64,000 bases of DNA from assembly GCA_049322915.1 (NCBI GenBank), contig JBMOPW010000034.1:616567-680566 (forward strand). The letters are read 5' to 3'. The first letter of the stretch is position 1; each line of letters starts with the position of its first letter. This document shows positions 17,514 through 40,887 of this stretch, one piece after another. Both the position numbers and the translations under genes were made by a program. Source of the stretch: Candidatus Zhuqueibacterota bacterium (lineage in GTDB: Bacteria > Zhuqueibacterota > Zhuqueibacteria > Thermofontimicrobiales > Thermofontimicrobiaceae). A model generated the notes under the pieces. It was given only the letters and a program-made list of their open reading frames with translations. It did no database searches and was not told the DNA's origin.

Positions 17514-18593
17514 TCAGGCCAATTTTAACTTCAAAAACCGCGGGAAATAAATGCGCAGATCATCGACGCATGTTTGCAGTGTTTTTGAATTCGTCACATA
17601 GGTGATAATCAATTCATCGTGCGCGCGCGACAGCTCCGGATGCGCTTTTACGGCGTAACAAAAATAGAGGGGACTCCAATCCACTTCCGGGCAATTGTAA
17701 ATGATCGTTGGTTCGGAGAAGGGTCCGTACGGCGTGTCGGCGAAACGAACGGTGATATGCTTTCCGTCTTTGCCAGAGTTAGCAACCAAAATATATGCGC
17801 CGAATTCACGGAGATACGTGACGGAAAACTCGGTGTTCGAGTTTTCAAAGACCGGGGAAATTTCGTTGCGATTGCCAGTCCAGCGCTGATTGATCCCATC
17901 GCGAAATTGCCAGTGGTGCATTCCGACGAAATTGAATTTTCCCTGCAGGTCCATCCGGGCAATGACGAGATTCGGCGGGTCAGTGATGACCGGCGTGGTT
18001 TTTTGAAAGCCGTAAATGTACACATAGCCGTGATCGATCAATATATTGGAACCGAAGGTACCCAGATCCTGTCGCCACGGAAGTTCATGAATTTTCAAAT
18101 GCCATTTTTCAGGCGGATCAAACGGGTTATCGATCTCGTAGATCAAATTTCCCACCAGTTTAAAACCAAAAGCATCGTTGATATTGGTCTGCACAATTCG
18201 AACAGCCAGGACGAACAACGTGCTTCCCAACAGCACCGAACTGAATGGCCAGACTCTACCGGGGACAGATGTATCATCGAACAAGGCCAGCGGGGATTTC
18301 TGTTTCATTGGCCAGAAAAACTGCAATCGGAAATCTCGTGCGCTGAAATCGCCGGTTTGAATAGCAATAGAATTGCTGATGATGACAGCGTCCACGCGAT
18401 TCTTCTGCGCCGGCGCTCGCTGTATAAATGAATCGCCGAAGAGCCACAGATTCTGGTCGTTGGTCAACGGCATGCTGAACGCCAAATCGCCGCCAATCCA
18501 GCCCTGATCATTCTGCTGAAAAGCGCACTCGAATTCAGGCAGCGGCTCGACGGAAATAACTTTCGGGAATTGCTTTTTCATATCGTTCTTCAT
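17514..18593 (-). CDS. DUF4185/DUF5005-like beta-propeller protein (putative glycoside hydrolase)
   Basis: GWIGGDLAFS..LWLFGDSF, EFSV, PYGPFSEP, YAVKAHPELS, YFPRF; no signal peptide; start uncertain (18581/18593/18602). Confidence 0.65.
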   Translation of the reverse strand: MKNDMKKQFPKVISVEPLPEFECAFQQNDQGWIGGDLAFSMPLTNDQNLWLFGDSFIQRAPAQKNRVDAVIISNSIAIQTGDFSARDFRLQFFWPMKQKSPLALFDDTSVPGRVWPFSSVLLGSTLFVLAVRIVQTNINDAFGFKLVGNLIYEIDNPFDPPEKWHLKIHELPWRQDLGTFGSNILIDHGYVYIYGFQKTTPVITDPPNLVIARMDLQGKFNFVGMHHWQFRDGINQRWTGNRNEISPVFENSNTEFSVTYLREFGAYILVANSGKDGKHITVRFADTPYGPFSEPTIIYNCPEVDWSPLYFCYAVKAHPELSRAHDELIITYVTNSKTLQTCVDDLRIYFPRFLKLKLA

Positions 18594-18709
18594 TTCTCTC
18601 AATTAAGTGAAGCGGCTCCAGCGGATTTATTCCAGCCGGACCAGCGCCGGATCGGGCAGACTCTCGTCCGGTAGGTGTGATTTAAAAAAGTGGCTCATCC
18701 GGCATGCCG

Positions 18710-19915
18710 TTACATGTGAATCGGATAGTTGCGCCATTTGATGGCCGCATCATAGGCAGCCACGATATTTTCGGGCGGGACATTGGCCTGGATATTATGC
18801 ACCTGGGTGAAGACAAATCCCCCGCCAGGCGCGAAAATTCGGATGCGGTCTTTCACCATGTCCGCGACCTCCTCAGGAGAAGCTCCCGGCAGCGCATGCT
18901 GCGTATCAACGCCGCCGCCCCAGAACGTGAGTTTGTCCCCGAATTCGGCTTTCAATCGGGTCGGGTCCATTTTAGCGGCCGAAGTCTGCACCGGGTTGAG
19001 AACGTCCACGCCGGCATCGATCAAATCCGGAATCAAATCGTACACCGAGCCGCAGCTATGGAGGAACACGTAAAGATCGGAATGCTGCTTCACATACTGG
19101 TAGATTTTCTGATGCCGCGGTTTGATAAACTCCCGATACATATCAGGGGAGAGCTGGGTTGCATGCTGCGTTCCCAGATCATCCCCCATCTGAATCACCT
19201 GAATGTATGCGCCCACCGCCTGCAAATAGCCTTCCAGGTTTTTCAGGTGCACTTCCACCAGCTTGTCCATCAAATCTTCGGCAAAGCCGGGATTGATGGC
19301 CAGGTCCATCATAAAATTCTCCCAACCGCGATACGCCTGACCCAGTTCCAGAATATTGCCGCCAAATCCGCCCATCACTGCAAAGTCCGTTTGAGTGTAC
19401 AGCTTCTTCGCTTTTAGCTCCAACAATTTCAAATCTTCATCAGTGAAATAGTACCATCGCGCCGAATCCAGATCCTGTTTGGTCGCGGCATTTTCCAGCA
19501 GTGGGTTGCAGGATTCAAAATAGAGGCATCCCTCCGGCATCCGCGAGGAAACTCTGTCCCGGTCCATGATAACCCATTCGTTGCCGCGACGAATGGGGTA
19601 GAAAATCTTTGGCACATAGCCAGAGGACTTATCCGGCAGAGGCCATTCCTGCCAGGCGTCGCTCGTTTCTCCAAATGTATTGGTGAGATCAACGACATCC
19701 ACCTGAAATCGCTTCAGAATTTCCAACTCCGGTTCAGCCAGTTGCTGACCGATATCGTACACGCGGGTGACTCCGCCGGTGATGTTGAGATATGATTTCA
19801 GTTTATTGTAGGCAATGGCCATAATGCCCGTGGACCGCATCGCGCCCAGATCAATGGGCACTTTGTCCGGCTCCTCGTGGCGCAATGTTTTCAACACACG
19901 TTCTCGCGATGTCAT
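18710..19915 (-). CDS. UroD/MtaA-fold protein (putative corrinoid methyltransferase)
   Basis: MTSRERV...EPDKVP, GDDLGTQ, FLHSCGS (HxC), NPVQ, WGGGVDTQ, HNIQ; lacks the HemE RQAGR motif. Confidence 0.8.
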   Translation of the reverse strand: MTSRERVLKTLRHEEPDKVPIDLGAMRSTGIMAIAYNKLKSYLNITGGVTRVYDIGQQLAEPELEILKRFQVDVVDLTNTFGETSDAWQEWPLPDKSSGYVPKIFYPIRRGNEWVIMDRDRVSSRMPEGCLYFESCNPLLENAATKQDLDSARWYYFTDEDLKLLELKAKKLYTQTDFAVMGGFGGNILELGQAYRGWENFMMDLAINPGFAEDLMDKLVEVHLKNLEGYLQAVGAYIQVIQMGDDLGTQHATQLSPDMYREFIKPRHQKIYQYVKQHSDLYVFLHSCGSVYDLIPDLIDAGVDVLNPVQTSAAKMDPTRLKAEFGDKLTFWGGGVDTQHALPGASPEEVADMVKDRIRIFAPGGGFVFTQVHNIQANVPPENIVAAYDAAIKWRNYPIHM

Positions 19916-19954
19916 TTCAGTTCATCCTCTGTAAAATTTGTCCGTGCTAAAAGA

Positions 19955-19986
19955 AGCTATCAGCTATCAGCTATTAGCTATCAGCT
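19955..19986. repeat. Heptamer tandem repeat (AGCTATC)x4.5, left arm of an inverted-repeat element
   Basis: AGCTATC AGCTATC AGCTATT AGCTATC AGCT; related inverted GCTGAAT units at 20089-20098 and 20247-20257. Confidence 0.85.
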
Positions 19987-20098
19987 TTTGGCGACAGGAA
20001 AAACAGCATGTTCAGATGGAATTATCCTGTCACCCAATGAGTGAAACCCGGCAAATGCATCTATTTATTATTTTTGAAAGAGCGTATGGCTGAATGCT

Positions 20099-20308: not shown

Positions 20309-21511
20309 TCACTTCGATAGGTCTTTATTACCGAACCATACTTTTTTCTGTTCATCCCATGTCCACGAGTCCGCCGGCAGCGACGGATCAATGCGCTTCA
20401 TGGATTTATCCCGGATCATGGCGATTGTTTCGTCCCAGGTTTTTATGCCGCTGATCGCATCCAGCTCATGGAGATTCTGAAACCCCACGCAGTTGGCGCA
20501 TTGCAGCGCTGTCTCAATACTCTGGCCGCGAATGAGCGCCGTTAAAAATCCGGCGATGGATGAATCCCCGGAACCGGTGGCGCTGGCGATCCGCTCAATT
20601 CTATACGCCGGGCACCAGACCTCCCGATCGCTCCAGCCGTTGGCGTCGAATCCATTCAGCCGTTCGAATGCAGCATGCTTCGCCACGTCGGCGGTTCGAA
20701 TATAAAATCCGCGATGGGCTGTTTTCAATGCGACAATGGCGCAACCCAGGTCCAGACACCTCTCAGCGAGACGGCGAAAATCCTCCGGTTGAAAATAATC
20801 AATGACATCCTGCGCGCCAAATTGCTCTTTTATCCTGAAATAGCGGGAGCTATCCAGCATGAAAAACACCTCTTCGATGCTCGGCAAAAAGATGTCCACG
20901 TGCGGGAGAACGGATTCCAGTATTTTTTTCCACGGCGCCTTGCCGCTGGGATTATTGGGATCCGGCAGGGACATATCCAGCGAGGTGATGGCGCCGGCTC
21001 TCTTTGCCAGCTGAAAAATATGGGCCAATTCCTCCCCCTCACGCTCGTAGCATGCGGCCATCAGTGGAGGGTAGCCGAAATGGAACAGCCTGGATTGAGC
21101 AATGATATCCGCATCCAGTTCGCGACCGGAGAAACGATCATTGGCGCCTGGGTCGTGCAGAAAAATCCGATCGATGCCCGGCGGCGCCAGCGCGACCGTG
21201 TACGAGGTGCGATCCTCCGACGACATGGAGACGCCGTCCGTGCTGCCCTGCGCTTCCAACAGACGAACGACAAGCCGGCCGAATTCATCCTCGCCGACCC
21301 GGGCCATGAATGCGACGTTCAGCCCGAGTTTTTTCATGGCAATCCCTGTATTGGAAACCGGCCCACCTGTGCTGATTTTTGCCGCGCCCACGTTAATCAA
21401 TTTCCCGGGCACAAACAGCGACGCGATGTCCCTGAGCCCGGTGTCGGCAAATTTCGGAATGATATCAAGACAGATATGGCCGGCGACGGTCACATCATAC
21501 GCTTTTTTCAT
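20309..21511 (-). CDS. PfkB family carbohydrate kinase
   Basis: GGPVSNTG, VGEDEFG, ATGSGDSSIAGF anion-hole motif; GGAGG RBS before ATG 21511. Confidence 0.9.
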   Translation of the reverse strand: MKKAYDVTVAGHICLDIIPKFADTGLRDIASLFVPGKLINVGAAKISTGGPVSNTGIAMKKLGLNVAFMARVGEDEFGRLVVRLLEAQGSTDGVSMSSEDRTSYTVALAPPGIDRIFLHDPGANDRFSGRELDADIIAQSRLFHFGYPPLMAACYEREGEELAHIFQLAKRAGAITSLDMSLPDPNNPSGKAPWKKILESVLPHVDIFLPSIEEVFFMLDSSRYFRIKEQFGAQDVIDYFQPEDFRRLAERCLDLGCAIVALKTAHRGFYIRTADVAKHAAFERLNGFDANGWSDREVWCPAYRIERIASATGSGDSSIAGFLTALIRGQSIETALQCANCVGFQNLHELDAISGIKTWDETIAMIRDKSMKRIDPSLPADSWTWDEQKKVWFGNKDLSK

Positions 21512-21513
21512 GA

Positions 21514-22320
21514 CTACCTCCAGATGAGTCGCATCCAGCTTTTCCATCCGACCAATAGATTCACATTCGCGGCGAGCGCTTGTTCGTCCGAACGCGCTGT
21601 CAGGAATTCAATTAGTTTCAACCGGTCTTTTTCACTGATTGTTTCCATTTTTAACACAATTTCAGATTTTGTGACATCGACAACGCTCACAACGCAGAGG
21701 GCATTGACCGCCGGCGCCAAAGCAATCGTCGCCTGACCGCTTTGGCCCGGCTTCACTTTTTTGACCAGGCGCTTATCCGCAGGAAATGCGGTGACGCGGA
21801 TGGTACTCTCTCCGAAGTTGAACACGCCGCCAATTTTCTTTCCTGCTGGAATATAATCGCTGCTGTCCACCAGATCAAAATACCCATCGATCTGCGAGCG
21901 AACAACGGCAATGTCCAATTCCGGGTAGTCGCGCGATTCAATATCCATGATGATGGAACTCAGCCTGCCGGCCAGCGCTGACATCCCGGCGTTCTCCGCA
22001 GTTTCCAGTTGCGCTTCGAGATTGCTCTGAATGGTTCTGTCCGCCAGAAATTTTTCGTCCGCCGTGACTTCCAGCAACGGATCACCGGCAGCAACCGTCT
22101 GCCCGGATTCGGATCTCAAATCAAGAATGAAATGCGGTTGTTCGAACGTCAGCCATTGGTGCTCAACTTCGAAGAGTCCGTTTAAATTCACATATTCATC
22201 TTCGGCTTTGATGAACGAGAGAGCCACCAGGCCAGCGATGAACAACAGCACAAAGGCGTAGCCGATTATCTCGATGTATTTGATATATTTTGCCAGGAGC
22301 TTTTTGACAAAGCGATTCAT
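21514..22320 (-). CDS. Short membrane-fusion (HlyD-like) adaptor protein
   Basis: One N-terminal TM helix; split lipoyl-like motifs (SGQTVAAGDPLLEV; VRSQIDG..IPAGKKIG) around a short helical hairpin; VKPGQ barrel motif; start ATG 22320. Confidence 0.55.
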   Translation of the reverse strand: MNRFVKKLLAKYIKYIEIIGYAFVLLFIAGLVALSFIKAEDEYVNLNGLFEVEHQWLTFEQPHFILDLRSESGQTVAAGDPLLEVTADEKFLADRTIQSNLEAQLETAENAGMSALAGRLSSIIMDIESRDYPELDIAVVRSQIDGYFDLVDSSDYIPAGKKIGGVFNFGESTIRVTAFPADKRLVKKVKPGQSGQATIALAPAVNALCVVSVVDVTKSEIVLKMETISEKDRLKLIEFLTARSDEQALAANVNLLVGWKSWMRLIWR

Positions 22321-22334
22321 GTTTTTCTCCGAAC

Positions 22335-24176
22335 TTATACCTGTACCTGCTTCTGATACAGCGATGCGAACAATCCCTTCTGATTTAAAAGCTGCCGGAA
22401 CGATCCCTGTTCGATGACTCTCCCCTTGTTCAGCACAAATATCTCGTCGCAGTCGCGGACCGAATTCAGCCGATGGGTGATGATGATGACCGTTTTCCCG
22501 GCGCACACGCGATTGAGCGTCGCTTCTATGGTGGCAGCAGTCTGGGAATCCAGGGCGCTGGTGGCTTCGTCCAGCACCAGCACCGATGGTTTTCGAATCA
22601 ACGCCCGGGCAATGGCGATCCGCTGGCGCTGGCCGCCGGATAGTTTGCTCCCCTCGGCAAGATCGGTGTCATAGCCCCGGGGCAGCGATAAAATATCGTC
22701 ATGGACAGCCGCCAATTTCGCAGCGTCGACAATCTCGGCCTCTGTGGCGTCCGGTTTGCCGTAGCGGATATTGTCGCAAACCGTACCGCTGAACAAAAAG
22801 TCCTCCTGCAGGATGATTCCAATATGCCGATAATAGGTGGCTGATTTTAAATCCCTCAAATCCACGCGGTCAGCCTGTATTTCGCCGCTGGCCGGGTCGT
22901 AGAATCGCAGGATCAAATTCACCAGCGATGTTTTGCCGGAACCGGATGGTCCGACAATGGCCACTTTTTTGCCCGGCGCGGTGTGAATCGTGATATCCGA
23001 AAGCACTTCCTTTTCCGGCACATAACCGAAAGAAACCCGATCGATGGCGTAGCTGCCGGAAAAGGAATCCAGGGCCACGGCGTTTTCGCGCTCCCGAATG
23101 GAAGGCTCCACGTTCAGGGTATCCATCAACCGTCGCGACGGAATGAGCTGGAGCCGAATTCCCTCGAACACGCGAATCATCAGATTGATGGGGCTGAAGA
23201 ATTGATCCAGCAACAGGTACAGCCCAAAAATCGCGCCGGCGGTCTGGTTCTGCTGCACAGCAACATAAAACAACGCTGCCACAATGAACAGGTACCGGAA
23301 CAGAAAGATGAAATCATCGGTGACGAGCTTCATGAAATAATTCTGCCATTCCACTCTGAGCATGGTCACATAAAGGCGGATGTTCTTTCTGGTCTCATGC
23401 CGACCCTTGCCAAAGGCCTTGATCGTTTTGATGCCCGCGAACCATTCCTGCAGGCCAGCCAGGAAATTCTGGCTTTTGCCGCGGAATTTGAAATCGATGT
23501 TCCGCTGGACGTTGTAGAACCTGTGAATCACCCAGATGTACGGGATGCAAAAGATGATCAGGGCAATTCCCACCTGGGCGCTGAAACCAATGGTAATGGT
23601 GAATAGAATGAGCCCTAACCGGAACAGGACGCGGATGAGCAGATCCAGCGATTGCGTGAGCATGCCCAGAACGCCATCGACGTCCTTTCCCACCATCGGC
23701 TGCTGGGCAGATTTCGCCGTGCCGGTCAATTCGAACAACATGCCGAGGATGGCGAGATTGGCAAAGCCCGGATCAAAATTGCTGCCAATGCGGTACATGT
23801 GCTCGCCGATGGGGCGCTGCTGGAAAAAACTCAGCGGCAGTTTCATCACATGCCTGAACACATTCATGCCCAGCGTCATGCCGAGCCGCATGGAAACCAC
23901 GTATTTCACCAATTCATAAATCAGGCTGAATGAAAAATATAGCACAATCTGCACGAGGATGACGATCACCAGAATCCGAAAGACATGCCAATCCTGCTGG
24001 CCCAGCACCTGGTCGATGAATTTCCGAATGAGCAACGGGAGAATCACCGTGTTGATATCCAGCGTGGTGATGATTATCGCCAACACCAGCACCAGCAGCA
24101 TCAACCGCCAGACAGGCCGGAGATAGCGCAAAAAGTAGACAAATATATTCCAATCGCTCAATGAGGTTGTTATCAT
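22335..24176 (-). CDS. ABC transporter, fused TMD-NBD (type IV exporter fold)
   Basis: TM domain plus GPSGSGKT, ILQE, LSGGQRQR, LVLDEATS, ITHR. Confidence 0.93.
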   Translation of the reverse strand: MITTSLSDWNIFVYFLRYLRPVWRLMLLVLVLAIIITTLDINTVILPLLIRKFIDQVLGQQDWHVFRILVIVILVQIVLYFSFSLIYELVKYVVSMRLGMTLGMNVFRHVMKLPLSFFQQRPIGEHMYRIGSNFDPGFANLAILGMLFELTGTAKSAQQPMVGKDVDGVLGMLTQSLDLLIRVLFRLGLILFTITIGFSAQVGIALIIFCIPYIWVIHRFYNVQRNIDFKFRGKSQNFLAGLQEWFAGIKTIKAFGKGRHETRKNIRLYVTMLRVEWQNYFMKLVTDDFIFLFRYLFIVAALFYVAVQQNQTAGAIFGLYLLLDQFFSPINLMIRVFEGIRLQLIPSRRLMDTLNVEPSIRERENAVALDSFSGSYAIDRVSFGYVPEKEVLSDITIHTAPGKKVAIVGPSGSGKTSLVNLILRFYDPASGEIQADRVDLRDLKSATYYRHIGIILQEDFLFSGTVCDNIRYGKPDATEAEIVDAAKLAAVHDDILSLPRGYDTDLAEGSKLSGGQRQRIAIARALIRKPSVLVLDEATSALDSQTAATIEATLNRVCAGKTVIIITHRLNSVRDCDEIFVLNKGRVIEQGSFRQLLNQKGLFASLYQKQVQV

Positions 24177-24183
24177 GCGTCGC

Positions 24184-25989
24184 TCACACAGTTAGTGTGG
24201 ACCTGGATTGCTGCTGATAGAGTTGATAATACAGCTTTTTATTTTGGATCAACTGCGCATGGGCGCCCTGTTCCACAATCTCGCCTTTATCAACGACGAG
24301 AATGTGCGCCGCATCGGCGACAAAACTCAGCCGATGGGAAATGATAATGGTGGAGACGTGAGAAAAATTTTGCCGGAGCGTCTGCATGATTCCATTTTCA
24401 GTCTCGATGTCCAGCGACGAGGTCGCTTCATCCAGCAGCAACAGCGCCGGATTTTTGAGCAAGGCCCGGGCAATGGCGACCCGCTGTTTCTGTCCGCCGG
24501 AGAGATTTGTCCCTTCAGCCACATCCATGTCATAGCCGCCGGGCATCTCCAGAATATCGGCGTGAATGCCGGCTGCTCTGGCAGCCTGCTCCACCTGTTC
24601 ATCGCTGGCGTACGGATCGCCGTAGCGGATATTTTCCCGGATGGTGCCGCCGAATAAAAACGTGTCCTGTAAAATGACGCCGGTCTGCTCCAGGACAGAG
24701 GCCATGTTCACATCCTTCACATTCAGACCATCGATTTTCACAGCGCCGGAATCCGGCTCGAAGAGTCGCAGCACGAGCATGGCGATGGTGCTTTTGCCGG
24801 CGCCGCTGGGACCGACGATACCCAGCTTCTGCCCCGGCTTCAGTTGAAATGAGATATTTTTCAGGATTGGGAAATCGCGCTGATAGGAGAAATTCACGGA
24901 ATCAAACTCAACGGCTCCTTTCAGCGAATCGATTCGCCGGGCATTGGCAGATTCGACAATATCAGGCTGCTGGTCCAGCGTTTCGAACAGACGCTTTGCC
25001 GGGATGAGGAACAGCCGGAATCGCTGGACAAAATTATAGGTCCCGTCAAGAAAGTACAGCAGCAAACGCGAAAAGTAGATGATGCTGCCCCAGGTGATGA
25101 TGGGAATGGCGCCTTTCAATCCGAAATAGGCGAACAGCGGCAGGGACAACGGCCAGATGATATGGACAGGAATGACGCGAACCTGATCCGCGACCAGGTA
25201 TTGCAGCAGAAATGCCGCCTGTGTTGATTTATAAAACTTCTTCATGACGCTGTAATAACGCCGGGTGGTGAATTTCACGCGGTCGAACGCTTTGATGACG
25301 CGGATGCCAGCCAGGCTCTCCCTGAGCACAGCATCCACCTCCTGGGCGCGGACGCGTTTGATGTAATCCAGCTTCTGGATGCGGCTGTATAAAATGTGAA
25401 CTAAAAAATAGATCGGGATTAAAATCAGCGTCAGGTAAAATAGAATGTTGCTGCCGACAACGGAAACCAGGTATATCATTAAAATGGTCTGATAGATATT
25501 GGAAATGAAGCCAGGCAGTCCGCTCTGGGTGGAATTCAATAACGGCAGCAATGCGTCGATGTCCGCATTGGCGCGGTACATGTGCTCGCCAATGGGCCGG
25601 GATTGATAGAATTTCAACGAGAGCAGTTGCAGGCGACGGTACAGATCCAGCCGCAATTTCAGAGATAATTTCAGGCCGAGGTACCAGACGAGTGTGTACA
25701 ACAGACTATCGAAAATGATCCAGCGAAACAGAAACGCGGGTAGGAGCAGGAGGAAGCAGAAGAATAGATAATCGCCGGACTGTCCCTGGCCGATGAAGGA
25801 GGGCAATTTGGACAACAGTAACACCGGCAGTGCGCTAATGGTTCCCTGAATGATGAGGAGGACAATGATGAGGATGTATTTATCCCAATAAGGAATAATG
25901 TATTTGAGAAGCCGAACGAATAGCGCGAACTGATTTTGCTTTTCAAATAATTTGTTGTCTTCCAAAAATACCTCAATCGGATTGGTCAA
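24184..25989 (-). CDS. ABC transporter, fused TMD-NBD (type IV exporter fold), partner subunit
   Basis: TM domain plus GPSGAGKS, LSGGQKQR, LLLDEATS, ISHR; shares RPIGEHMYR with its neighbour; TTG start. Confidence 0.92.
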   Translation of the reverse strand: MTNPIEVFLEDNKLFEKQNQFALFVRLLKYIIPYWDKYILIIVLLIIQGTISALPVLLLSKLPSFIGQGQSGDYLFFCFLLLLPAFLFRWIIFDSLLYTLVWYLGLKLSLKLRLDLYRRLQLLSLKFYQSRPIGEHMYRANADIDALLPLLNSTQSGLPGFISNIYQTILMIYLVSVVGSNILFYLTLILIPIYFLVHILYSRIQKLDYIKRVRAQEVDAVLRESLAGIRVIKAFDRVKFTTRRYYSVMKKFYKSTQAAFLLQYLVADQVRVIPVHIIWPLSLPLFAYFGLKGAIPIITWGSIIYFSRLLLYFLDGTYNFVQRFRLFLIPAKRLFETLDQQPDIVESANARRIDSLKGAVEFDSVNFSYQRDFPILKNISFQLKPGQKLGIVGPSGAGKSTIAMLVLRLFEPDSGAVKIDGLNVKDVNMASVLEQTGVILQDTFLFGGTIRENIRYGDPYASDEQVEQAARAAGIHADILEMPGGYDMDVAEGTNLSGGQKQRVAIARALLKNPALLLLDEATSSLDIETENGIMQTLRQNFSHVSTIIISHRLSFVADAAHILVVDKGEIVEQGAHAQLIQNKKLYYQLYQQQSRSTLTV

Positions 25990-31777: not shown

Positions 31778-31815
31778 GAGAGAAATCTCCTCTTCCAAAT
31801 TTCTTGTTCAACCAT

Positions 31816-33848: not shown

Positions 33849-36821
33849 TCATCTGAAATTATATTTCAATCCGAACCAGATGCTGCGCGGGGCATAATAA
33901 ATGGAGTAGCTGATATTGTATCCGTCCGGGTCAATGGGAGTGGTCTCGCCGGTCTCGACAAATTTTTCCAGCGCCTCCAGGTCCCAGAGATTGCCCCAGG
34001 CCCTGACATTTTTCTGGTTGAACAAATTGGTAATTTTAGTATACAGCGTAACGGTATGCTGGCCGAACGTCAGATATTTATTGAATTTCAAATCCCATGT
34101 CTGCCGCGCCGGGAAACGTCGGTTGTTCAGCAGATCCGGTGGATCATCCGCTTCCAGGTAGGTGAACGACTGACCGCTGATATACTGATAGAGCAGACTG
34201 AGATCGGTATTGCCGAGGACTGTGCTCAGGCCGGGGATGTTCCAGTTGTCCGGATATTGCATGAAGAAATTCGCGCGAAGCAAATGAGGCCGGCTGTAGC
34301 TCTTCTCGGTCGGCAGCCTGTCCGATGCCTCCACATACCATTGGTACGTCACGTTGCCATCCGCACCCACATGTATCTGCCACGGGGTCGCTTTGCCAAA
34401 CGTGCTTTTGGAGAAGCTGTAATTCACATCGATGATAATATTTTTGCTGAATAACGTTTTGGCTGAAACCTCCACGCCGCGCGCATCGCCATAGTCGCCG
34501 CTGTAGCGACTGCTGTAAAAGACGCGCGATTCGCTGGCCGAGTACGGATCCCAGCCGTAAACGCGCTTGTCCAAAAATTCTGCCCGTTCCGTCTGGTCGA
34601 AGACATCCTTGTAAAAACCAGTGATGTTCAAAACCGCGATATCTTCGATGTGATGTTTGATGCCCATTTCGAATTGAATGGTCTTTTCAGGTTTCAATGG
34701 TTCCAGCGTCATGTTGATGACGCGTTCAGGATCGGAGTCCGTCGAAGGCGCACCCTTGATGATTGACACGGGTCGGAAGTAGGCGAAGTCGTACTGGGCA
34801 TTGATGGCCGGCATCTGGTAGAAATGGCCGTAGCTGAAATGGAAGACCGATTTTTCCGTGATCGGGAAAGAAATGCCGATCCGCGGATTCAACGAATGCG
34901 ATGGTTTCACACGCTCGCGTTCTTTATCCAGCACATTTTGATAGTCCCATTTTTTATTGCCCAGAGAATCGATGCCATCTTTATCCGGATCCAGGGACGT
35001 GACGTAGTCGGTGTTCAAACTCGGATTCACCTGAAAACTGTTGACGGTGAACCAGTCGCGATTGCCATCGTACATGTCATATCGCAGACCCATATTGAGG
35101 ATCATGCTCTCGAATTCCATTTTATCCTGGACGTAACATGCAAACTGGATCGGATGATAGGTCTCGTTCAAACCGCGGACGCGCCAGTCGGCCAGGTCAT
35201 CGCTCCATTCGGCCATTACCCAGCTATTTTCATCGAACGTGTTGTAATGAAATTCAAATCCGCTCTTCAGCAAATTGTTGGCATTGAATTGCCAGTTCAG
35301 ATGTCCCACCAGGGAGAGGTCGCTGGTTCGGTTATGAACCAGCGGGGTGAATTGATGCGCGATGAACGGCTCATCTTCGAATCCATCGTAACGATGCCAG
35401 CCCCAGACATCCGGCTTCAACGATTCGCCCAATACCCGGTATGAGCTCGCCATCTGATCCTGTTTCAGCGTGTATGAACTCAATTTCAGTTCGTAAAACA
35501 TATTCGGCGAGATGACATGCGTCAGACCGAGACGGCCCTGATACACGTAATTATCCAGGAGCGAACCGTAGCCGCGATAATATTTGGCGAGCAGCGGAAA
35601 CGACTCCTCGGCATTGGTCGCATGCTCGTCGTGGCTGTACATGCCGCCGAATTTGATATTCATTCCCGGCCCCACCGCATAATTGCCGCTCAGGTTGAAG
35701 TCCGTCAGATTTCTGGTATCGCGCGGACGGGGCAGTTCATAGGGCTGCTGCTGATAGCGGCCGGTGAGGAAGAAAGTCATCTTCTTCAGTTCATCCCCGA
35801 TGATCGGCAAAAAACCACCGATGACCGGGCCGCCCAGTGAAAAGCGGATTTCGTGATCCGCAAAATCGCGATAGTCGTAAACTTGCTTCTGCCGATCCGG
35901 AATCCACCAGGCCGGGTCCAGATTCGAATTGCCGAGGCTGTCGGTGATTGTGTGTTTGATGAATTCGATATTCCTGGCCGGATCGAACAGGTAATCGCCG
36001 AAGTGGCGCTGATGGGGATTGTTGTACTGGTAGTCCATCGAAAACGTATATTTCTGGTCGCCCTCTTTGGTAATCACGTTGACGATGCCGGATTGCGCCT
36101 GGCCGTACTCGGCGTTGAATCCGCCGGTGATCACCTGAACCTCTTTCACCGCGTCTTTGTTGATTCGGGTGTAAGATCCGCCGGCGTCGGCCGTGGCTTC
36201 AGACCATGCGGCAGAGCGCATGCCGTCGATGTACCAGACCACTTCATCCTGATCGCCGCCGCGCACAGAATATCGAGGCTCGCCGCGACCCGTGCCGGAG
36301 AGATTGCCTTCCACCGGGATGGGATCGAAAAACACGCCGGTCTGTAAATTGACCGCTTCAATCACTTCGGTGGCAGTGGATTGCTCAATTTCCTCCAGCC
36401 CCACAACCTCAACGCTGGTGGTCAGATCTTTCTGTATGACCGGCCGCTCCGCCTGGACAATCACGGACTCACCGAGGTCCAGCACTTCCTGATCCAGGAC
36501 GAAATCAACTCTCGTCGTCTGGTCCATACTCACTTTCACATGCTGCACCTCGGTGTAGGCATACCCCATCATTTTGGCGATGACGGTGTACTCACCCGGA
36601 GGCACGGAGATGATGAAGTAGTTCCCATGGATATCCGAGCCAGCGCCGAGGTAGGTGCCTTTGAGTTGAATATTGACCATAGCCAGAGGTTCATTGGTCT
36701 GCCGATCTTTCACCACCCCGGCTATTTTTCCGGTCGTTCCTGCAAAGACCAGATAGGGCATTGTCAGGAAAAAACCGAGCCAACGAATTTTGCGGAAAAT
36801 CTTATGCGTCTTTTTGACCAT
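33849..36821 (-). CDS. TonB-dependent receptor
   Basis: Signal peptide, N-terminal carboxypeptidase-regulatory-like domain (GKIAGVVKD), plug (VRGG, TGGFNAEYGQAQSGIVN), barrel, C-terminal PRSIWFGLKYNFR. Confidence 0.92.
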   Translation of the reverse strand: MVKKTHKIFRKIRWLGFFLTMPYLVFAGTTGKIAGVVKDRQTNEPLAMVNIQLKGTYLGAGSDIHGNYFIISVPPGEYTVIAKMMGYAYTEVQHVKVSMDQTTRVDFVLDQEVLDLGESVIVQAERPVIQKDLTTSVEVVGLEEIEQSTATEVIEAVNLQTGVFFDPIPVEGNLSGTGRGEPRYSVRGGDQDEVVWYIDGMRSAAWSEATADAGGSYTRINKDAVKEVQVITGGFNAEYGQAQSGIVNVITKEGDQKYTFSMDYQYNNPHQRHFGDYLFDPARNIEFIKHTITDSLGNSNLDPAWWIPDRQKQVYDYRDFADHEIRFSLGGPVIGGFLPIIGDELKKMTFFLTGRYQQQPYELPRPRDTRNLTDFNLSGNYAVGPGMNIKFGGMYSHDEHATNAEESFPLLAKYYRGYGSLLDNYVYQGRLGLTHVISPNMFYELKLSSYTLKQDQMASSYRVLGESLKPDVWGWHRYDGFEDEPFIAHQFTPLVHNRTSDLSLVGHLNWQFNANNLLKSGFEFHYNTFDENSWVMAEWSDDLADWRVRGLNETYHPIQFACYVQDKMEFESMILNMGLRYDMYDGNRDWFTVNSFQVNPSLNTDYVTSLDPDKDGIDSLGNKKWDYQNVLDKERERVKPSHSLNPRIGISFPITEKSVFHFSYGHFYQMPAINAQYDFAYFRPVSIIKGAPSTDSDPERVINMTLEPLKPEKTIQFEMGIKHHIEDIAVLNITGFYKDVFDQTERAEFLDKRVYGWDPYSASESRVFYSSRYSGDYGDARGVEVSAKTLFSKNIIIDVNYSFSKSTFGKATPWQIHVGADGNVTYQWYVEASDRLPTEKSYSRPHLLRANFFMQYPDNWNIPGLSTVLGNTDLSLLYQYISGQSFTYLEADDPPDLLNNRRFPARQTWDLKFNKYLTFGQHTVTLYTKITNLFNQKNVRAWGNLWDLEALEKFVETGETTPIDPDGYNISYSIYYAPRSIWFGLKYNFR

Positions 36822-36952
36822 AAAGCCCTCCCTAAAAATTCTTTCAAGCTGGAACATGAAATCAAATCAACTTTTATCCGCCGCACATCACCAACAAGTT
36901 TTTGTTCAATAAAAATGCACTCGCCCGGCGCGCTCACCAATCTGCGCACCGC

Positions 36953-38374
36953 TCAGGACGGACGCGCAGCCCCATTGACTTCTGCAAGCGCTGCATCGCT
37001 CAAAAAGGCCTGATGCAGCAGCAAGGCCTCTGGCAAACCGCCTTTCAGAATATGGCTGGCATGACTCAAATCGTGTCCCTGAGTATCGGCAAACGGAACA
37101 GCCACGCACAGCCCGATGCCGGCCGCGCGAATCGCAATCAGCCCGGATTCGCTGTCCTCAAAGCCGATGACTTTGTTGTAATCCGCCGCGGGAATACCCA
37201 ATTGATGCAACGCCAGACTGTACAGATCGCGATGCGGCTTGAGTCGAATTTCACTGGAGTCCGAAGCCGTAATGATGGCATCAAAGACCTGGCCGGGATT
37301 TTCGAACGCCTGAAGGAGAAATGCCTTCTTTTCCGGGCGCACATCCCAATCGCTCACCTGCCGGCGAATCATTTTGAACACTTCGGCCAGAACGATTTCC
37401 GCTTCATAGGCGATGGATGAAGTGACAATGGCGATTTTCAGAGGATGCGCCTGAAAATAGCCGCCGATGCGTTTCAACTGCTGCCGGCCTTCAGCCAGAC
37501 GGGATTCAGCAGCGGTCACATGCGGATTGGTTCTCAGCGCGTCCGTCAAATGCTGGGAGAAACGATCCAGATCGTCGCCGAGCCATCCTTTTATCGTCGC
37601 CAGAAACACGGCGACTCCAGGCATGGGTTCGATCAGATTCATATTTTCATCCGGCAGAAGCCCTTTCAGATCATCGGCCTGGCCGCCGGCAATTTTCGCA
37701 AGTATCTCGTGATAGCGCTGGTAGTAAACATCGATTGCGGCGCGCACCTGATCGATCTCGGATCCGAACCGAATGCGTTCCGTATATCGCTGCACGAGCG
37801 CCCTGATTTCGTCGGCATCGAAAAATTCGGCGTCGCCGGATGCGTCCTGCAACCAGCGTCCGATCTCCATCTCCCGGACAATGTCGCCACACGAAAAATG
37901 ACTGAGCGTTTGCATCACTTCCCGTTTGCGGGTGGCGTCCCTGCCCTGTTTCAGAGTGAGCAGCGCTGCCTTCAAATAAGCGTGACGAAAATGGTTCACG
38001 TCAAATCGGGACTGGTAGGTCCTGACCAGATACTCCACATGTTTGGTGGTGCTATTGCCGATGATGTGCGGGTAATCGGCGTCGCGATCCAGTCCGGCCC
38101 ATTGCTGCGTTGTCATTCGTCCGCTGAATTGTCGCACCATGGTTTCCAGGGAATGCAGGCACAAATTTTCCGTTGTGGTCGTGGTGCCATCCATATCCTG
38201 AACCACAGCCACCAGCCGATCCTGGTTGGTTGTGATTTTCGGCGCCAACGGGCAGATATCGTATCGCGAATAAATGTAATCCGGATTTTTGATGGCAATG
38301 AACTCATCTCCCAATTGGGATAACAGCGCCATCACGCTTTGTTTATTTGTGTTCACATCAAATTTAGCATTCAT
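36953..38374 (-). CDS. HAD-superfamily hydrolase with large cap insertion
   Basis: Motif I DMDGT, II VTSS, III LKPHRDLY, IV GFEDSESG; start overlaps the upstream stop (TGATG). Confidence 0.82.
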   Translation of the reverse strand: MNAKFDVNTNKQSVMALLSQLGDEFIAIKNPDYIYSRYDICPLAPKITTNQDRLVAVVQDMDGTTTTTENLCLHSLETMVRQFSGRMTTQQWAGLDRDADYPHIIGNSTTKHVEYLVRTYQSRFDVNHFRHAYLKAALLTLKQGRDATRKREVMQTLSHFSCGDIVREMEIGRWLQDASGDAEFFDADEIRALVQRYTERIRFGSEIDQVRAAIDVYYQRYHEILAKIAGGQADDLKGLLPDENMNLIEPMPGVAVFLATIKGWLGDDLDRFSQHLTDALRTNPHVTAAESRLAEGRQQLKRIGGYFQAHPLKIAIVTSSIAYEAEIVLAEVFKMIRRQVSDWDVRPEKKAFLLQAFENPGQVFDAIITASDSSEIRLKPHRDLYSLALHQLGIPAADYNKVIGFEDSESGLIAIRAAGIGLCVAVPFADTQGHDLSHASHILKGGLPEALLLHQAFLSDAALAEVNGAARPS

Positions 38375-39036
38375 CAGTTCGCATCATTCAGTTTCAGTAA
38401 ATCCCTGGCAACCTGAACAGCCGATACGGCATCATCTGCATAGCCATCCGCTTTAATGAGTTGGGCAAATCGCGCCGTAATGGGCGCGCCTCCGATCAGA
38501 ACTTTTACCTTTTTCCGGATTCCGGCCACCCGCAACGCTTCGAGTGTAATTTTCATCATGGGCATGGTTGTGGTTAATAACGCGGATAGAGCGAGGATAT
38601 GAGGCGAATACTCAATTGCCTTTTCAACAAATTTCTCAGGGGCAATATCGACGCCCAAATCGATAACTTCGAAACCGGCGCCTTCGAGCATGATGATGAC
38701 CAGATTCTTCCCGATATTATGTAGGTCTCCTTTCACGGTTCCAATCACCACCCGTTTGAATAATTTCTTTTCCGATTTCGTCAACAGCGGCCGAAGCACA
38801 TCCAGGCCGGCATGCATGGCGCTTGCTGCGACCAGCACCTCGGGAACGTAAATTTCATTTTCTTTGAACAGCATGCTGATTTCTTTCATGCCGGGAATTA
38901 ACCCATGATAGAGCAGATCAAGCGGTTTTTGACGATCCTTCAGCCCGCTTTCGATCAATTCCCTTATTGCAGAACTGTTGCCCTTCCGCAAACAAGCAGA
39001 GATTTCATCGTACAACTGGTTTCCGTCATTTGCCAA
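38374..39036 (-). CDS. Corrinoid (cobalamin-binding) protein, second paralog
   Basis: EIYVPEVL cap, GTVKGDLHNIGKNLV, SALLTTT, GGAP; TTG start. Confidence 0.9.
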   Translation of the reverse strand: MANDGNQLYDEISACLRKGNSSAIRELIESGLKDRQKPLDLLYHGLIPGMKEISMLFKENEIYVPEVLVAASAMHAGLDVLRPLLTKSEKKLFKRVVIGTVKGDLHNIGKNLVIIMLEGAGFEVIDLGVDIAPEKFVEKAIEYSPHILALSALLTTTMPMMKITLEALRVAGIRKKVKVLIGGAPITARFAQLIKADGYADDAVSAVQVARDLLKLNDAN

Positions 39037-39049
39037 ACGAACAAGCCTT

Positions 39050-39196
39050 TCAGTTACTGTTCCGTCGTCTTGCTGTAATTCGCGTCGGTCGATCTACAGC
39101 GAGTTTTAGCTGGTCTCTGTTCCGTCTCCGTTTGAAAATCCCGCGATTGAATAAGGCGCGAATTTCACGGCAAAGCTGGTCTGAGTTCAGTTCCAT
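39050..39196 (-). CDS. Putative 48-aa Arg-rich small protein
   Basis: ATG at 39196 with GGAGGT 6 nt upstream; stop lies 13 bp before the corrinoid gene start. Confidence 0.45.
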   Translation of the reverse strand: MELNSDQLCREIRALFNRGIFKRRRNRDQLKLAVDRPTRITARRRNSN

Positions 39197-39290
39197 GACG
39201 CCACCTCCAATTGGGGTCGTTTTCTCCCCGATACCCATTTTTCACGGGCGCTGCGTCAAGGCGATTGAGTTGAACTGGTAAAAAAAAATT

Positions 39291-39453
39291 GTGATATTCA
39301 GGTTGTTCGGTTCATCGTTCAAGGTTCAAAGTGAATGACCTTTCCTGGTCAGTTCCCGCGCCGGTTGCCAGTCCTGAATTTCTTCAGACTGTTTAATTTC
39401 GTGTCTCGTAAACCCTGAACCGGTCACTTTGAACGTTGAACCTGAATGGCTAT
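39291..39453. mobile_element. Miniature inverted-repeat element related to 20099-20246
   Basis: Ends ATTCAGGTT...AACCTGAAT; shares GGTTCATCGTTCARGGTTCA with the 20.1 kb copy; inverted TGAAC heptamers at the right end. Confidence 0.55.
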
Positions 39454-39462
39454 AGATAATTC

Positions 39463-39534
39463 ACTATAAGTTAATATTTTTTTGAAAATAGTATTGTGTT
39501 TTGTAGCTTTTCTTTGGTAATATATTGTTTTATT
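39463..39534 (-). promoter_or_regulatory. Putative activator-dependent promoter of the locus
   Basis: Minus-strand TATAGT (-10-like, 39463-39468), poor -35, two ACAATA-core direct repeats 31 bp apart; directly downstream of the AraC gene. Confidence 0.3.
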
Positions 39535-39558
39535 CGTCCAGGTCCCGGCAGCCGTTTA

Positions 39559-40887
39559 TTAAAATGCGATGGTGTACATACGCCGATAGGTCTTGGGCGT
39601 CACCTGCTCCATTTTTTTAAACACTTTGGTGAAGTAGCTCTGGTCCGGATAGCCAACCTCCAGCGCAATCTGGGCCAATGACAGCCCTGATTCCAGCAAC
39701 AATCGTTTTGCTGCGTCGATTCGTATTTTGGTCAGGAATTCGATAAACGTGGTGTGCAATTCTTCTTTGAACAGGTGACACAGATAAAACGGGCTGATGA
39801 AAATTTTCTTCGCTACGGTATCCAGCGTCAATTTTTCCATATAATTTTTTTTGATGAACGAACAGGCCTGTTCCAGAATTCGGTAGTGATGCAGATTGCG
39901 CGTCTGGTAGATGTTATCGCAAATACTTTCCATCACCTTCACAACCCAGAAACAGAGCGATTCGTGATCCGAAATATCCGCCAATTCACTGACAAAGTTG
40001 TACCGCAATCCCAGCACGTTCTCGGGACTGCCCCCTTCTTCGACAACGGCGCGAGTGAGGATGATGGCTAATTCCAGCACATAGGTTTTCAGCAATTCAA
40101 TCTGGATGGGATCATGCAGCATCACCTGACCCAGGAACTCGTTGAGTATGGTCTTAGCGCCGACCTTGTCGCCCAGCCGGACTTTGGTGATGAGTTCCTG
40201 TTCTTTTTTCACGTTCAAAATTGGGAGCAGGTGATGGTCATCAGGATTGGAGATATATTTATATTTCTGAACCTCTTCGGCGACCTGGGCCTGTTGAATC
40301 ATCCGCTGCTTACGAACGAGCATGGGACCCAGATTGGGCGTGGATAGATAATCGGCGATGCTGAACAACAGATCCGAGGCCAGCTTCACTTTCTTTTCCG
40401 GGATCACCGGCACTAGGCTCAGCATGGCGACGTACTTCTTTTTGCATTCCACTGAAAGATTGGCTGTTTTAAGAAAAACGTCCACCTGCTGCTCATTGGC
40501 GTTGCGCATCAGAAACGGATAAACCAACAGGCCGCCAATGATATCATCATTGTAGAGGATCGGCACGCTCATGATATAAAATCCGGCGTGGCATACCGAA
40601 ATGTAGGTGTCGCCCCATCGAAGCGCTTCGTAGTAGGCTTCGCGGCAATACTTGTGACAGCGGAGAGAAATATCCGAATCCTGGCTCAGAATCTTACATG
40701 GCTTGGGCGATTCGGGATGGTGATTTGTCTCGTGGAGTGTCTCTCCCATCGTGTTGATCAATTCAACGGAGACGCCAAAAAGATCGTGAAACATCTGAAG
40801 CATGGTGTGCAACGATTTGTTCGTATTGGGATTGAGCGTGTGAGTCAGGAGATCCATGGCATCCGATAATTTTTTGAGTTCCGGCAT
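39559..40887 (-). CDS. PocR ligand-binding domain AraC-family transcriptional regulator
   Basis: N-terminal three-Cys PocR pattern (PCK..RC..CHAG..VPI), C-terminal double HTH (SPFYLCHLFK, IALEVGYPDQSYFTKVFKK). Confidence 0.88.
   Translation of the reverse strand: MPELKKLSDAMDLLTHTLNPNTNKSLHTMLQMFHDLFGVSVELINTMGETLHETNHHPESPKPCKILSQDSDISLRCHKYCREAYYEALRWGDTYISVCHAGFYIMSVPILYNDDIIGGLLVYPFLMRNANEQQVDVFLKTANLSVECKKKYVAMLSLVPVIPEKKVKLASDLLFSIADYLSTPNLGPMLVRKQRMIQQAQVAEEVQKYKYISNPDDHHLLPILNVKKEQELITKVRLGDKVGAKTILNEFLGQVMLHDPIQIELLKTYVLELAIILTRAVVEEGGSPENVLGLRYNFVSELADISDHESLCFWVVKVMESICDNIYQTRNLHHYRILEQACSFIKKNYMEKLTLDTVAKKIFISPFYLCHLFKEELHTTFIEFLTKIRIDAAKRLLLESGLSLAQIALEVGYPDQSYFTKVFKKMEQVTPKTYRRMYTIAF

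Follow-up and report, generated by a model that had tools for sequence, protein, structure and literature searches.

A glycan-utilisation locus with corrinoid proteins and a UroD-fold protein in candidate division KSB1 suggests an oxygen-free route of sugar demethylation

A row of 15 genes in a 64,000-nucleotide stretch of bacterial DNA (the window; contig JBMOPW010000034.1, here C34, positions 616,567 to 680,566) is read here as a glycan-utilisation system of candidate division KSB1 with a corrinoid (B12) methyl-transfer step in its catabolic pathway, a reading to which we give about an even chance of being right. Central to it are two corrinoid proteins, CP1 and CP2, and a 401-residue protein of the UroD/MtaA fold, UroD401, encoded among genes for outer-membrane uptake, glycosidase-family enzymes and a sugar kinase. 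The source genome (G000; 6.25 Mb, 96% complete) belongs to KSB1; its nearest public relatives are KSB1 metagenome-assembled genomes, and to one of these a corrinoid protein is 78% identical. The host appears to be an uncultured sediment or biofilm bacterium, and the locus, with its genes for the import and cutting of a presumably mannose-containing sugar polymer, suggests that it has an undescribed, oxygen-free route of sugar demethylation.

Methyl ethers are carried by many algal, plant, fungal and bacterial glycans and block glycosidases. The sugar demethylases that we found described are P450 enzymes, which require oxygen (PMC6292453, PMC10033563). An oxygen-free route would bear on the handling of methylated sugars in anoxic sediment, biofilm and gut. 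Literature searches (subscription-only papers not covered) turned up no cobalamin- or corrinoid-dependent demethylation of carbohydrates. A preliminary description of the window, made from its letters, knew of no characterised locus of this composition. The 15 protein genes named in that description are all intact, on the minus strand and at the positions it gave, and Pfam and NCBIfam back their labels.

UroD401 and its predicted corrinoid partner

Family labels were taken from Pfam and NCBIfam profile matches, and signal peptides and transmembrane helices were judged by eye. By sequence, the sole solved relative of UroD401 is MtaA (PDB 4ay7, E 2e-6), and H286-S-C288 of UroD401 aligns with the LHICG motif of that structure. 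The His-x-Cys...Cys residues of MtaA are taken by us to be its zinc ligands. Among 29 family members, H286, C288, G289, D246, G248, Q250, W332-G335, T338, H373 and N374 are invariant. The AlphaFold2 (AF2) model of UroD401, with a mean confidence (pLDDT) of 93.7, has the UroD-type (beta/alpha)8 fold with an extra beta-sheet insert at residues 88-126. A place in the haem-biosynthetic hemE family is not indicated, the score against TIGR01464 being 29.9 bits where the cut-off is 302.95.

A complex of UroD401 with CP2 was predicted with an ipSAE score of 0.86 (runs 0.87, 0.84 and 0.86), while the highest-scoring of three controls stayed at 0.00; the complex score expresses the confidence of the model and may reflect likeness to solved complexes of B12 domains with TIM barrels. 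In the benchmark of the score, 116 of 157 solved complexes came up to the mark of 0.86, as did 2 of 215 mismatched pairs. At least 79% of contacts are common to the runs, and the pLDDT of the partners is at least 80. On the CP2 side, the predicted interface consists of the B12-binding loops (residues 97-101, 149-151 and 178-180) together with residues 55-64; on the UroD401 side, it comprises residues 249-256, 293, 338-340 and 376-378, around the cluster of invariant residues. The modelling thus supports binding of the B12 face of CP2 by the conserved barrel face of UroD401.

CP1 and CP2 are 49% identical to each other. In both, the cap domain and the Rossmann B12 domain exceed the Pfam cut-offs, as in MtaC/MtbC/MtgC-type proteins of about 210 residues, and both have the DxHxxG loop by which base-off/His-on binding is recognised, with D99, H101 and G104 invariant in 37 sequences. 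MtgC_2 is the best NCBIfam match of both (CP2 224 bits, CP1 209 bits, cut-off 370), TIGR02370 gives 194.6 and 180.8 bits against 215.3, and no curated subfamily cut-off is passed. They are the only stand-alone corrinoid proteins found in G000, in which the other matches are MetH and two short B12-binding frames. The gene for RACo, a corrinoid activator, follows the CP2 orthologue in its phyletic pattern: of the 55 genomes that have the corrinoid protein, 43 also encode RACo, and of the 6 that lack it, 1 does. Close homologues of the corrinoid proteins (52-78% identity) were also collected in a cross-phylum set of 80 loci, mostly from Armatimonadota, KSB1, Chloroflexota, Spirochaetota and Acidobacteriota. 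Their recurrent neighbours are RACo (26 loci), UroD (10), MttB (8), PocR-AraC regulators (6-8), and a stand-alone homocysteine S-methyltransferase, a pterin-binding methyltransferase and DUF1638 (6 each), which indicates an ordinary methyltransferase-type family that works with varied partner enzymes.

Gene neighbourhoods and methyl-transfer partners in KSB1

The comparison covered a KSB1 class set of 61 genomes, including G001 from the same genus, G002 as another genome of family f1, G018 from family f2, and G021, G026, G031 and G036 from family f4. G001 keeps the whole gene row, with 64-84% identity per protein, and G018 and G002 keep it with some rearrangement; CP1 travels with the locus in these three genomes, and all three have orthologues of the PocR-AraC regulator. 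In G010, the order is CP2, ABC-F, GH38, DUF4185a, binding protein, two permeases, PfkB, S46 peptidase, UroD401, a second UroD gene and DUF4185b. All four f4 genomes keep the DUF4185b-UroD401 pair, which is followed in G021, G026 and G031 by permeases, binding protein, DUF4185a and GH38, and in G026 and G031 also by PorV-like and/or surface-protein genes after GH38. The corrinoid and UroD genes therefore do occur with the glycan genes elsewhere (G001, G002, G018), as the preliminary description needed, and the core of UroD-DUF4185b and GH38-DUF4185a extends to f4.

Orthologues of UroD401 (at least 61% identity) were located in 16 loci, namely in G000, in 14 relatives, and on one metagenome contig (L130), the only further contig to repeat the locus in a metagenome scan with UroD401; what the other contigs of that scan carry is more remotely related and has other surroundings. 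The loci span families f1, f2 and f4. Ten of the 16 have a DUF4185b-like gene within two genes of the UroD401 orthologue, and five have none there (G014, G017, G018, G020, G025), the orthologue of G002 being at a contig end. A GH38 orthologue (at least 70%) is found in the same stretch in 8 loci, several of the remaining ones being short contigs, and a corrinoid protein in 6. The transporter varies, being either an exporter-type ABC pair or a binding protein with two permeases, and the enzyme core is kept with both, so that the core has stayed together through transporter exchange and several rearrangements.

Other contexts of UroD401-type genes were also recorded. The usual place of DUF4185b is occupied in G025 (L119, 8941-11288) by a DUF2961 gene (282.8 bits), which overlaps the UroD401 orthologue (61% identical) at the start of the latter. 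Three metagenome contigs (L156, L161, L170) carry a ROK kinase, a glycyl-radical enzyme (PFL-like, about 720 bits), UroD, SIS, UroD, PfkB and HAD genes; this cluster is a different sugar pathway that has also recruited UroD401-type enzymes. Unnamed families of 330 and 550 residues beside UroD401 relatives have no similarity to any protein of the window.

An unlikely rival to the methyl-transfer reading is an inherited neighbourhood, in which CP2, and perhaps CP1, would be a shared carrier for a modular methionine synthase or general methyl transfer, and UroD401 would act independently of cobalamin, for example in a decarboxylation like that of haem UroD. A number of observations count in its favour, against our reading, or both. 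The CP2 orthologue is present in 55 of the 61 genomes, usually as a single copy, and stands mostly beside unrelated genes (a xylose-isomerase-like TIM barrel, a DegT aminotransferase, ABC-F, a tricorn protease); it may be a housekeeping methyl carrier whose place in the locus was simply inherited. The glycan locus of G002 contains CP1, but its CP2 orthologue is on another contig, and the stretch retrieved from the f4 genomes contains no corrinoid gene. GH38, DUF4185 and the receptor were each found in 0 of the 80 cross-phylum loci, so that the link between corrinoid and glycan genes proposed in the preliminary description holds within KSB1 but does not extend, for the corrinoid protein, beyond it. 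In Armatimonadota, housekeeping genes (priA, def, fmt, metK) surround the RACo-corrinoid protein pair, and in Ruegeria pomeroyi a core corrinoid protein is shared by methionine synthesis and catabolic demethylation (PMC12478193). Metagenome relatives of UroD401 at 45-60% identity occur in carbohydrate contexts (the cluster of ROK kinase and glycyl-radical enzyme; GH116; 3-keto-disaccharide hydrolase; MGH1-like hydrolase with sulfatase) with no corrinoid gene nearby, most UroD paralogues of G000 likewise have none nearby, and at least 20 such paralogues face two corrinoid proteins. UroD401 itself scores only 45-58 bits with MtaA/CmuA models, far below their cut-offs (TIGR01463, 49.5 against 235.4; PRK06252, 57.6 against 244), and the later MtaA cysteine (APGCG) faces a glycine (APGGG), leaving the third cysteine unaligned. 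Foldseek with the UroD401 model matches haem UroD and MtaA 4ay7 equally (E about 1e-13), followed by the zinc enzyme MetE, and could not tell MtaA-like from HemE-like proteins. In addition, the compared genomes are kin, so that repeated synteny and counts among them are not independent evidence.

Against an inherited neighbourhood stand the predicted docking of UroD401 on CP2, to which the controls gave no counterpart, and the adjacency of the CP2 and UroD401 orthologues in G014, where no glycan genes are nearby. The constant company of CP1 in G001, G018 and G002, the H-x-C motif conserved as in MtaA, and a hemE score of about a tenth of the cut-off point in the same direction. So does the association of MtaB, an MtaA-like/thioredoxin fusion and RACo with these glycan genes, as seen in G026 and G000.

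In G026, this association takes the form of one block, which starts with the MtaA-like/thioredoxin fusion, a secreted 1459-residue GH38, MtaB (Pfam 530 bits; NCBIfam MtaB 447 against 720), a flavin reductase, DUF4185b and UroD401, and continues with the importer, DUF4185a, GH38, PorV and the surface protein. In G000, the orthologous fusion (67% identical to that of G026; mtaA_cmuA 168 bits vs hemE 90 bits) is on contig C5, where it adjoins a CobW/ZigA-like metallochaperone and a secreted 1433-residue GH38, with RACo following after about 5 kb, immediately before the end of the contig. The surrounding stretch (C5, 6000-29012; L225, L127) has a ROK kinase, unnamed genes, the CobW/ZigA-like GTPase and the MtaA-like protein with two thioredoxin-like domains before the secreted GH38, which carries DUF4961, a beta-helix and a tail for the type IX secretion system (T9SS), and DUF6635, an acyl-ACP thioesterase and two unnamed genes between it and the terminal RACo. 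The MtaA-like/thioredoxin fusion, a CobW-like gene, a 347-residue UroD gene and the CP2 orthologue are neighbours in G012, and a CobW gene follows the UroD401 orthologue in G017.

RACo is encoded twice in G000, on C5 and C26 and thus outside the locus; on C26, it follows a stand-alone homocysteine S-methyltransferase, and this pair is kept in G001. Candidates for the four components of a corrinoid O-demethylase (methyltransferase I, corrinoid protein, methyltransferase II and activating enzyme) are spread over G000, the corrinoid proteins and one UroD-fold methyltransferase candidate being in the locus and the two RACo genes, the homocysteine methyltransferase and the MtaA-like/thioredoxin fusion elsewhere. 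No pterin-type methyltransferase II was found in G000 apart from MetH, which is present at full length on contig C32. The window also encodes, at 53346-55178 (+) and 12 kb from the locus, a fused homocysteine S-methyltransferase and methylenetetrahydrofolate reductase (PRK08645, 748 bits, cut-off 453).

The methanol-type methyltransferase MtaB is encoded in 19 of the 61 class genomes, including all four of f4. It was not found in G000 at 96% completeness, and the copy of G001 (contig C11, 4280-5590) has an internal TAA stop; this methyltransferase may be decaying in the genus. Since the corrinoid proteins and UroD401 are kept all the same, UroD401 is independent of MtaB. These data bear on a further rival, in which methanol released from methyl esters or methyl glycosides of the glycan, or a methyl thiol, is salvaged: an MtaB-type enzyme (in G000, another paralogue) would load the corrinoid protein, and UroD401 would be the methyltransferase II that unloads it to a thiol or other acceptor. 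UroD-fold methyltransferases such as MtaA and MtsA work in either direction, so that UroD401 could indeed unload rather than load the corrinoid, and a locus that contains MtaB, as in f4, is more simply explained with free methanol as the source of the methyl group. The proximity of MtaB to DUF4185b-UroD401 in G026 agrees with such a salvage, as do clusters of family f6 in which RACo, a corrinoid protein and MtaB precede a run of three or four UroD genes that begins with one of the long UroD401 type. The same can be said of the position of MtaA as closest solved structure by sequence, of the UroD paralogues that are fused to or stand beside thioredoxin-like proteins, and of the methyl-sulfur or methyl-selenide roles proposed for MtaA-like clusters (Kountz and Balskus, PMC10418091). 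We nevertheless hold methanol or methyl-thiol salvage to be quite improbable, in view of the state of MtaB in G000 and G001, the lack of any esterase among the Pfam and NCBIfam matches in the locus, and the tight pairing of UroD401 with a glycosidase-like gene, which fits a sugar better than a free thiol.

UroD-fold genes are numerous in G000, 20 being found by similarity to UroD401 and at least 3 more by Pfam or NCBIfam. About 8 of the 20 adjoin glycoside-hydrolase or sugar-transport genes (GH89-like, GH2, GH32/43-like, GH1, GxGYxYP, and a second GH38-UroD-UroD arrangement). On contig C14 (928000-941000; L220), a 1028-residue GH38 is grouped with two UroD-fold genes and a protein with a thioredoxin/AhpC domain. 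On contig C36 (197500-210500; L216), a UroD-fold gene is directly followed by a gene for a ComB-like 2-phosphosulpholactate phosphatase, a family with a known role in coenzyme M synthesis.

Glycan enzymes, uptake genes and the layout of the row

The 15 intact open reading frames run from 40887 to 17514 with short gaps or overlaps between them (Table 1). The row is closed by a strong hairpin with a U-run, the terminator that the preliminary description had seen. Its small open reading frame at 39050-39238 (62 residues), by contrast, has no counterpart in any related locus, and another small frame, at 40903-41163, has none in the relatives either. Pattern scans for sigma-70 promoters and terminators gave counts near those of shuffled sequences and were uninformative. 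Signal peptides were recognised in the receptor, the 609-residue protein and the PorV-like protein, and none in GH38, the two DUF4185 proteins, UroD401, PfkB, HAD, CP1 and CP2.

Table 1. Features of the locus in the order of the gene row, with positions in the window.
Feature	Position	Strand	Main evidence
PocR-sensor/AraC-type regulator	39559..40887	-	Pfam PocR 78.5 bits, HTH_18 91.1
Corrinoid protein CP1	38374..39036	-	B12-binding 98.8, B12-binding_2 67.6 bits; DLHNIG at residue 104
HAD-superfamily sugar-phosphate phosphatase/mutase with enlarged helical cap	36953..38374	-	HAD motifs; start overlaps CP1 stop by one base
TonB-dependent outer-membrane receptor	33849..36857	-	Pfam N-terminal CarboxypepD_reg (CarbopepD_reg_2), Plug, OMP_b-brl_4
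Secreted 609-residue protein	31816..33645	-	Signal peptide; weak T9SS C-terminal domain TIGR04183, 21.3 bits (cut-off 23); no Pfam match
PorV/PorQ-family outer-membrane beta-barrel	30830..31798	-	NF033709 201 bits (cut-off 90); Pfam PorV 33.9 bits
Corrinoid protein CP2	29940..30569	-	B12-binding 100.9, B12-binding_2 77.1 bits; DLHDIG at residue 99
GH38 alpha-mannosidase-family enzyme, cytoplasmic	27138..29915	-	All four GH38 Pfam domains (N-terminal, middle, C-terminal, C2) above cut-offs
DUF4185a, cytoplasmic	26008..27045	-	PF13810 102.5 bits (cut-off 39.5)
ABC half-transporter 1	24184..25989	-	ABC_membrane and ABC_tran; exporter-type, MsbA/HlyB-like, below all NCBIfam cut-offs
ABC half-transporter 2	22335..24176	-	Exporter-type; 33% identical to half-transporter 1
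Membrane-anchored HlyD-like adaptor	21514..22506	-	HlyD_3 18 bits (cut-off 22.2); one transmembrane helix
PfkB-family sugar kinase	20309..21547	-	PfkB 90.1 bits; best NCBIfam match IolC-like, 83 bits against 300
UroD/MtaA-fold protein UroD401 (401 residues)	18710..19915	-	URO-D PF01208 94.6 bits; candidate zinc-dependent methyltransferase acting on corrinoid protein
DUF4185b (DUF4185/DUF5005-like), cytoplasmic	17514..18602	-	PF13810 47.9 bits (cut-off 39.5), PF16396 34.7
Intrinsic-terminator-like hairpin and U-run	17399..17437 (hairpin 17437-17404)	-	-18.7 kcal/mol, z = -5.7, 0/200 shuffles as stable

The GH38 enzyme has E values of 1e-92 to 5e-102 against PDB 3lvt, 5kbp and 2wyh (3lvt 5e-102) and is similar to the cytosolic GH38 enzymes known from Enterococcus and Streptococcus. 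The window encodes another cytoplasmic GH38 at 46296-49073 (+), which shares 32% identity with that of the locus and is followed by an M28 peptidase gene; its position is kept in G001 (69% identical). The two DUF4185 proteins are more distant from solved enzymes: residues 190-315 of DUF4185a match the endo-alpha-D-arabinanase 8hhv at E 1.6e-6, and DUF4185b, whose match to PF13810 spans profile positions 167-288 only, matches PDB 4hbs, a 'putative hydrolase', at E 1.8e-6. We take DUF4185 to correspond to GH183 and DUF2961 to GH172. The mycobacterial methylmannose-polysaccharide hydrolase MmpH, considered as a DUF4185 protein, proved to be a wrong assignment, the enzyme being an (alpha/alpha)6 barrel (PMC9883506). 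The HAD protein was also considered as a hidden methyltransferase, and this was rejected: its AF2 model (pLDDT 90) has, by Foldseek, the ordinary fold of a C1-cap sugar-phosphate phosphatase or mutase, with CbbY, beta-phosphoglucomutase and phosphoglycolate phosphatase as best folds. It belongs to a widespread, unnamed family (919 matches among 8000 scored).

The uptake genes depart from the SusC/SusD type of polysaccharide-utilisation locus, which is recognised by a SusC-like receptor beside a SusD-like lipoprotein. Only the N-terminus of the receptor in the locus matches the SusC/RagA model (58 bits, cut-off 368), and no SusD family is among the Pfam and NCBIfam matches in the locus. The gene of the secreted 609-residue protein lies, in the relatives, always between the receptor and PorV-like genes, and its atlas neighbours are only unnamed families of Ignavibacteriota and Fidelibacterota; it is probably a surface glycan-binding or glycan-processing partner of the receptor.

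The ABC pair is less easily placed. The preliminary description had the two half-transporters import oligosaccharides, which is doubtful, as both are exporter-type and relatives carry a binding-protein-dependent sugar importer (L091, 7141-10400; L116, 11231-14338) where G000 has the pair and its adaptor (21514-25989). With an exporter-type pair and no obvious inner-membrane importer in the locus, the inner-membrane route of G000 is left unexplained. The adaptor orthologues, which are 268-281 residues long and always follow the ABC pair, indicate that its true start is probably near 22320.

The exporter type of the pair and of the HlyD-like adaptor, together with the capacity of UroD-fold enzymes to run both ways, would suit a biosynthetic module in which methyl-corrinoid methylates a sugar or glycan and the product is exported. 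We regard this as very unlikely, because no glycosyltransferase is among the Pfam and NCBIfam matches in the locus, the GH38, the DUF4185 genes, the kinase and the uptake receptor point to catabolism, and the relatives carry an importer in place of the pair. Some exporter-fold ABC proteins import cobalamin. The pair could on that ground be assigned, with the receptor and the surface protein, to the uptake of cobamides, the corrinoid proteins then being B12 carriers or sensors that act with the PocR-AraC protein; PocR-AraC genes beside corrinoid protein genes in 8 of the 80 cross-phylum loci and a linkage of corrinoid protein, receptor and PorV in family f5 would agree with this. Such a role in corrinoid acquisition or B12-dependent regulation seems highly improbable to us. 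Rfam gave no family at the gathering threshold in the whole window or at E <= 1 in 17000-41300, so that a cobalamin riboswitch was looked for without success; with the B12 receptor model, the receptor reaches 31 bits of the 600 required; the corrinoid proteins are without signal peptides and score best as methyltransferase-cognate proteins; and GH38, DUF4185, PfkB, HAD and UroD401 would be left unexplained.

Beyond the terminator, the window encodes a small protein that matches the calcium-binding family CcbP (16796-17185, -; 121 bits) and, after it, a hybrid histidine kinase/response regulator (14679-16550). Further on, at 7329-11924 (-), a phosphotransacetylase/butyryltransferase-like gene, subunits of a 2-oxoacid:ferredoxin oxidoreductase and an acetate-kinase-family gene lie in a row, which fits a fermentative, oxygen-avoiding lifestyle.

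Proposed pathway and comparison with known systems

The demethylation pathway of the preliminary description has gained from the gene content, the co-occurrence in relatives, the predicted docking of UroD401 on CP2 and the partner genes; what the substrate is, which way the methyl group moves, what accepts it and how the locus is regulated is what we infer in the scheme that follows. The TonB-dependent receptor, the T9SS-sorted surface protein and the PorV-like barrel would carry out uptake at the outer membrane, and the imported oligosaccharide would be cut in the cytoplasm by GH38 and the two DUF4185-family enzymes. UroD401 would take a methyl group from a methylated sugar residue and transfer it to Co(I) of CP2 and/or CP1; an O-methyl ether is the most likely substrate, and a methylthio sugar or methyl glycoside a possible one. 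PfkB and the large-cap HAD enzyme would feed the freed sugar into central metabolism. The methyl-corrinoid would be unloaded by the stand-alone homocysteine S-methyltransferase of C26, yielding methionine, and/or by the MtaA-like/thioredoxin fusion of C5, RACo would re-reduce corrinoid oxidised to Co(II), and the PocR-AraC protein would control the locus.

A broader proposal can be made, to which we give somewhat less than an even chance: UroD401 and its paralogues would be the first anaerobic carbohydrate demethylases, zinc- and corrinoid-dependent, and would act on O- or S-methyl sugars from partner glycosidases. A common corrinoid protein would receive the methyl group and supply it to methionine synthesis or a thiol acceptor. 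With DUF4185-like, DUF2961 and GH38 proteins as partners, the glycans concerned may be methylated mannose or furanose glycans, for example those of actinobacterial cell envelopes. Judged by the paralogue expansions in KSB1, this would be a widespread, undescribed accessory function of glycan loci. If the proposal is true, alkyl methyl ethers of carbohydrates are a new substrate class for B12 methyltransferases, an oxygen-free counterpart of the P450 sugar demethylases exists, and the large expansions of UroD-fold genes in glycan degraders are explained. It would also tie polysaccharide breakdown to methionine, one-carbon metabolism and B12 demand, and it gives concrete candidate enzymes.

Several known systems can be compared with the locus. 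The O-demethylases of acetogens and Desulfitobacterium likewise combine a small DxHxxG corrinoid protein with a UroD-superfamily methyltransferase and a RACo/Ram-type activator in the genome; OdmB and VdmB are such UroD-superfamily O-demethylases (PMC10418091). They differ in acting on aryl methyl ethers and in passing the methyl group to tetrahydrofolate, for which G000 has no pterin-type enzyme except MetH. In KSB1, moreover, the activator and the candidate second methyltransferases are on other contigs, the module stands inside a glycan-uptake and glycosidase locus, and UroD401 is far from the curated models. The MtaB-MtaC-MtaA system of methanol use, known from methanogens and from bacteria, has points in common with the locus: CP1 and CP2 match models of the MtaC/MtbC/MtgC type, MtaA 4ay7 is the solved structure nearest to UroD401 by sequence, and the block of relatives carries MtaB. 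The differences lie in the absence of MtaB from G000, the unaligned third zinc-ligand cysteine of MtaA, the insert at residues 88-126 of UroD401, and coenzyme M, a pathway neither looked for nor implied here.

Also comparable are the type 1 mlp clusters of non-methanogens, in which an MtaA-like UroD protein, a corrinoid protein and an activator occur without a tetrahydrofolate methyltransferase (PMC10418091). These clusters are defined by Mlp2 and Mlp3, with or without Mlp1, beside the corrinoid protein and a Ram protein, whereas the KSB1 locus has one UroD protein, two corrinoid proteins and no activator, and thus falls outside the definition; the same paper describes MtaA-like clusters of non-methanogens without a link to carbohydrates, the terms carbohydrate, sugar and glycos- being absent from its text. 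The MtgB-MtgC-MtgD system of Ruegeria pomeroyi (PMC12478193) shares with KSB1 a stand-alone core corrinoid protein that serves both methionine synthesis and catabolic demethylation, and MtgC_2 is the best match of CP1 and CP2, although both score below its cut-off; its substrate is glycine betaine and its enzyme is of the MttB family.

On the glycan side, the P450 6-O-methyl-galactose demethylase of marine agar and porphyran degraders (PMC6292453, PMC10033563) is a functional analogue, being encoded together with polysaccharide degradation and removing a blocking methyl group. It depends on oxygen, yields formaldehyde and has no homology to the proteins considered here, for which an oxygen-free transfer to Co(I) is proposed. 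The SusC/SusD loci of Bacteroidota are similar in their CarboxypepD_reg receptor, surface protein, glycosidases, kinase and dedicated regulator; in place of SusD, the KSB1 locus has a T9SS-sorted protein of an unnamed family and a PorV-like barrel. Finally, the D-arabinan-degrading enzymes of the DUF4185 and DUF2961 families (PMC10115798; 8hhv) are related in that both DUF4185 genes of the locus pass the Pfam cut-off and a DUF2961 gene stands beside the UroD401 orthologue of G025, but the similarity is distant (E about 1e-6 to 8hhv) and the proteins of the KSB1 locus are cytoplasmic.

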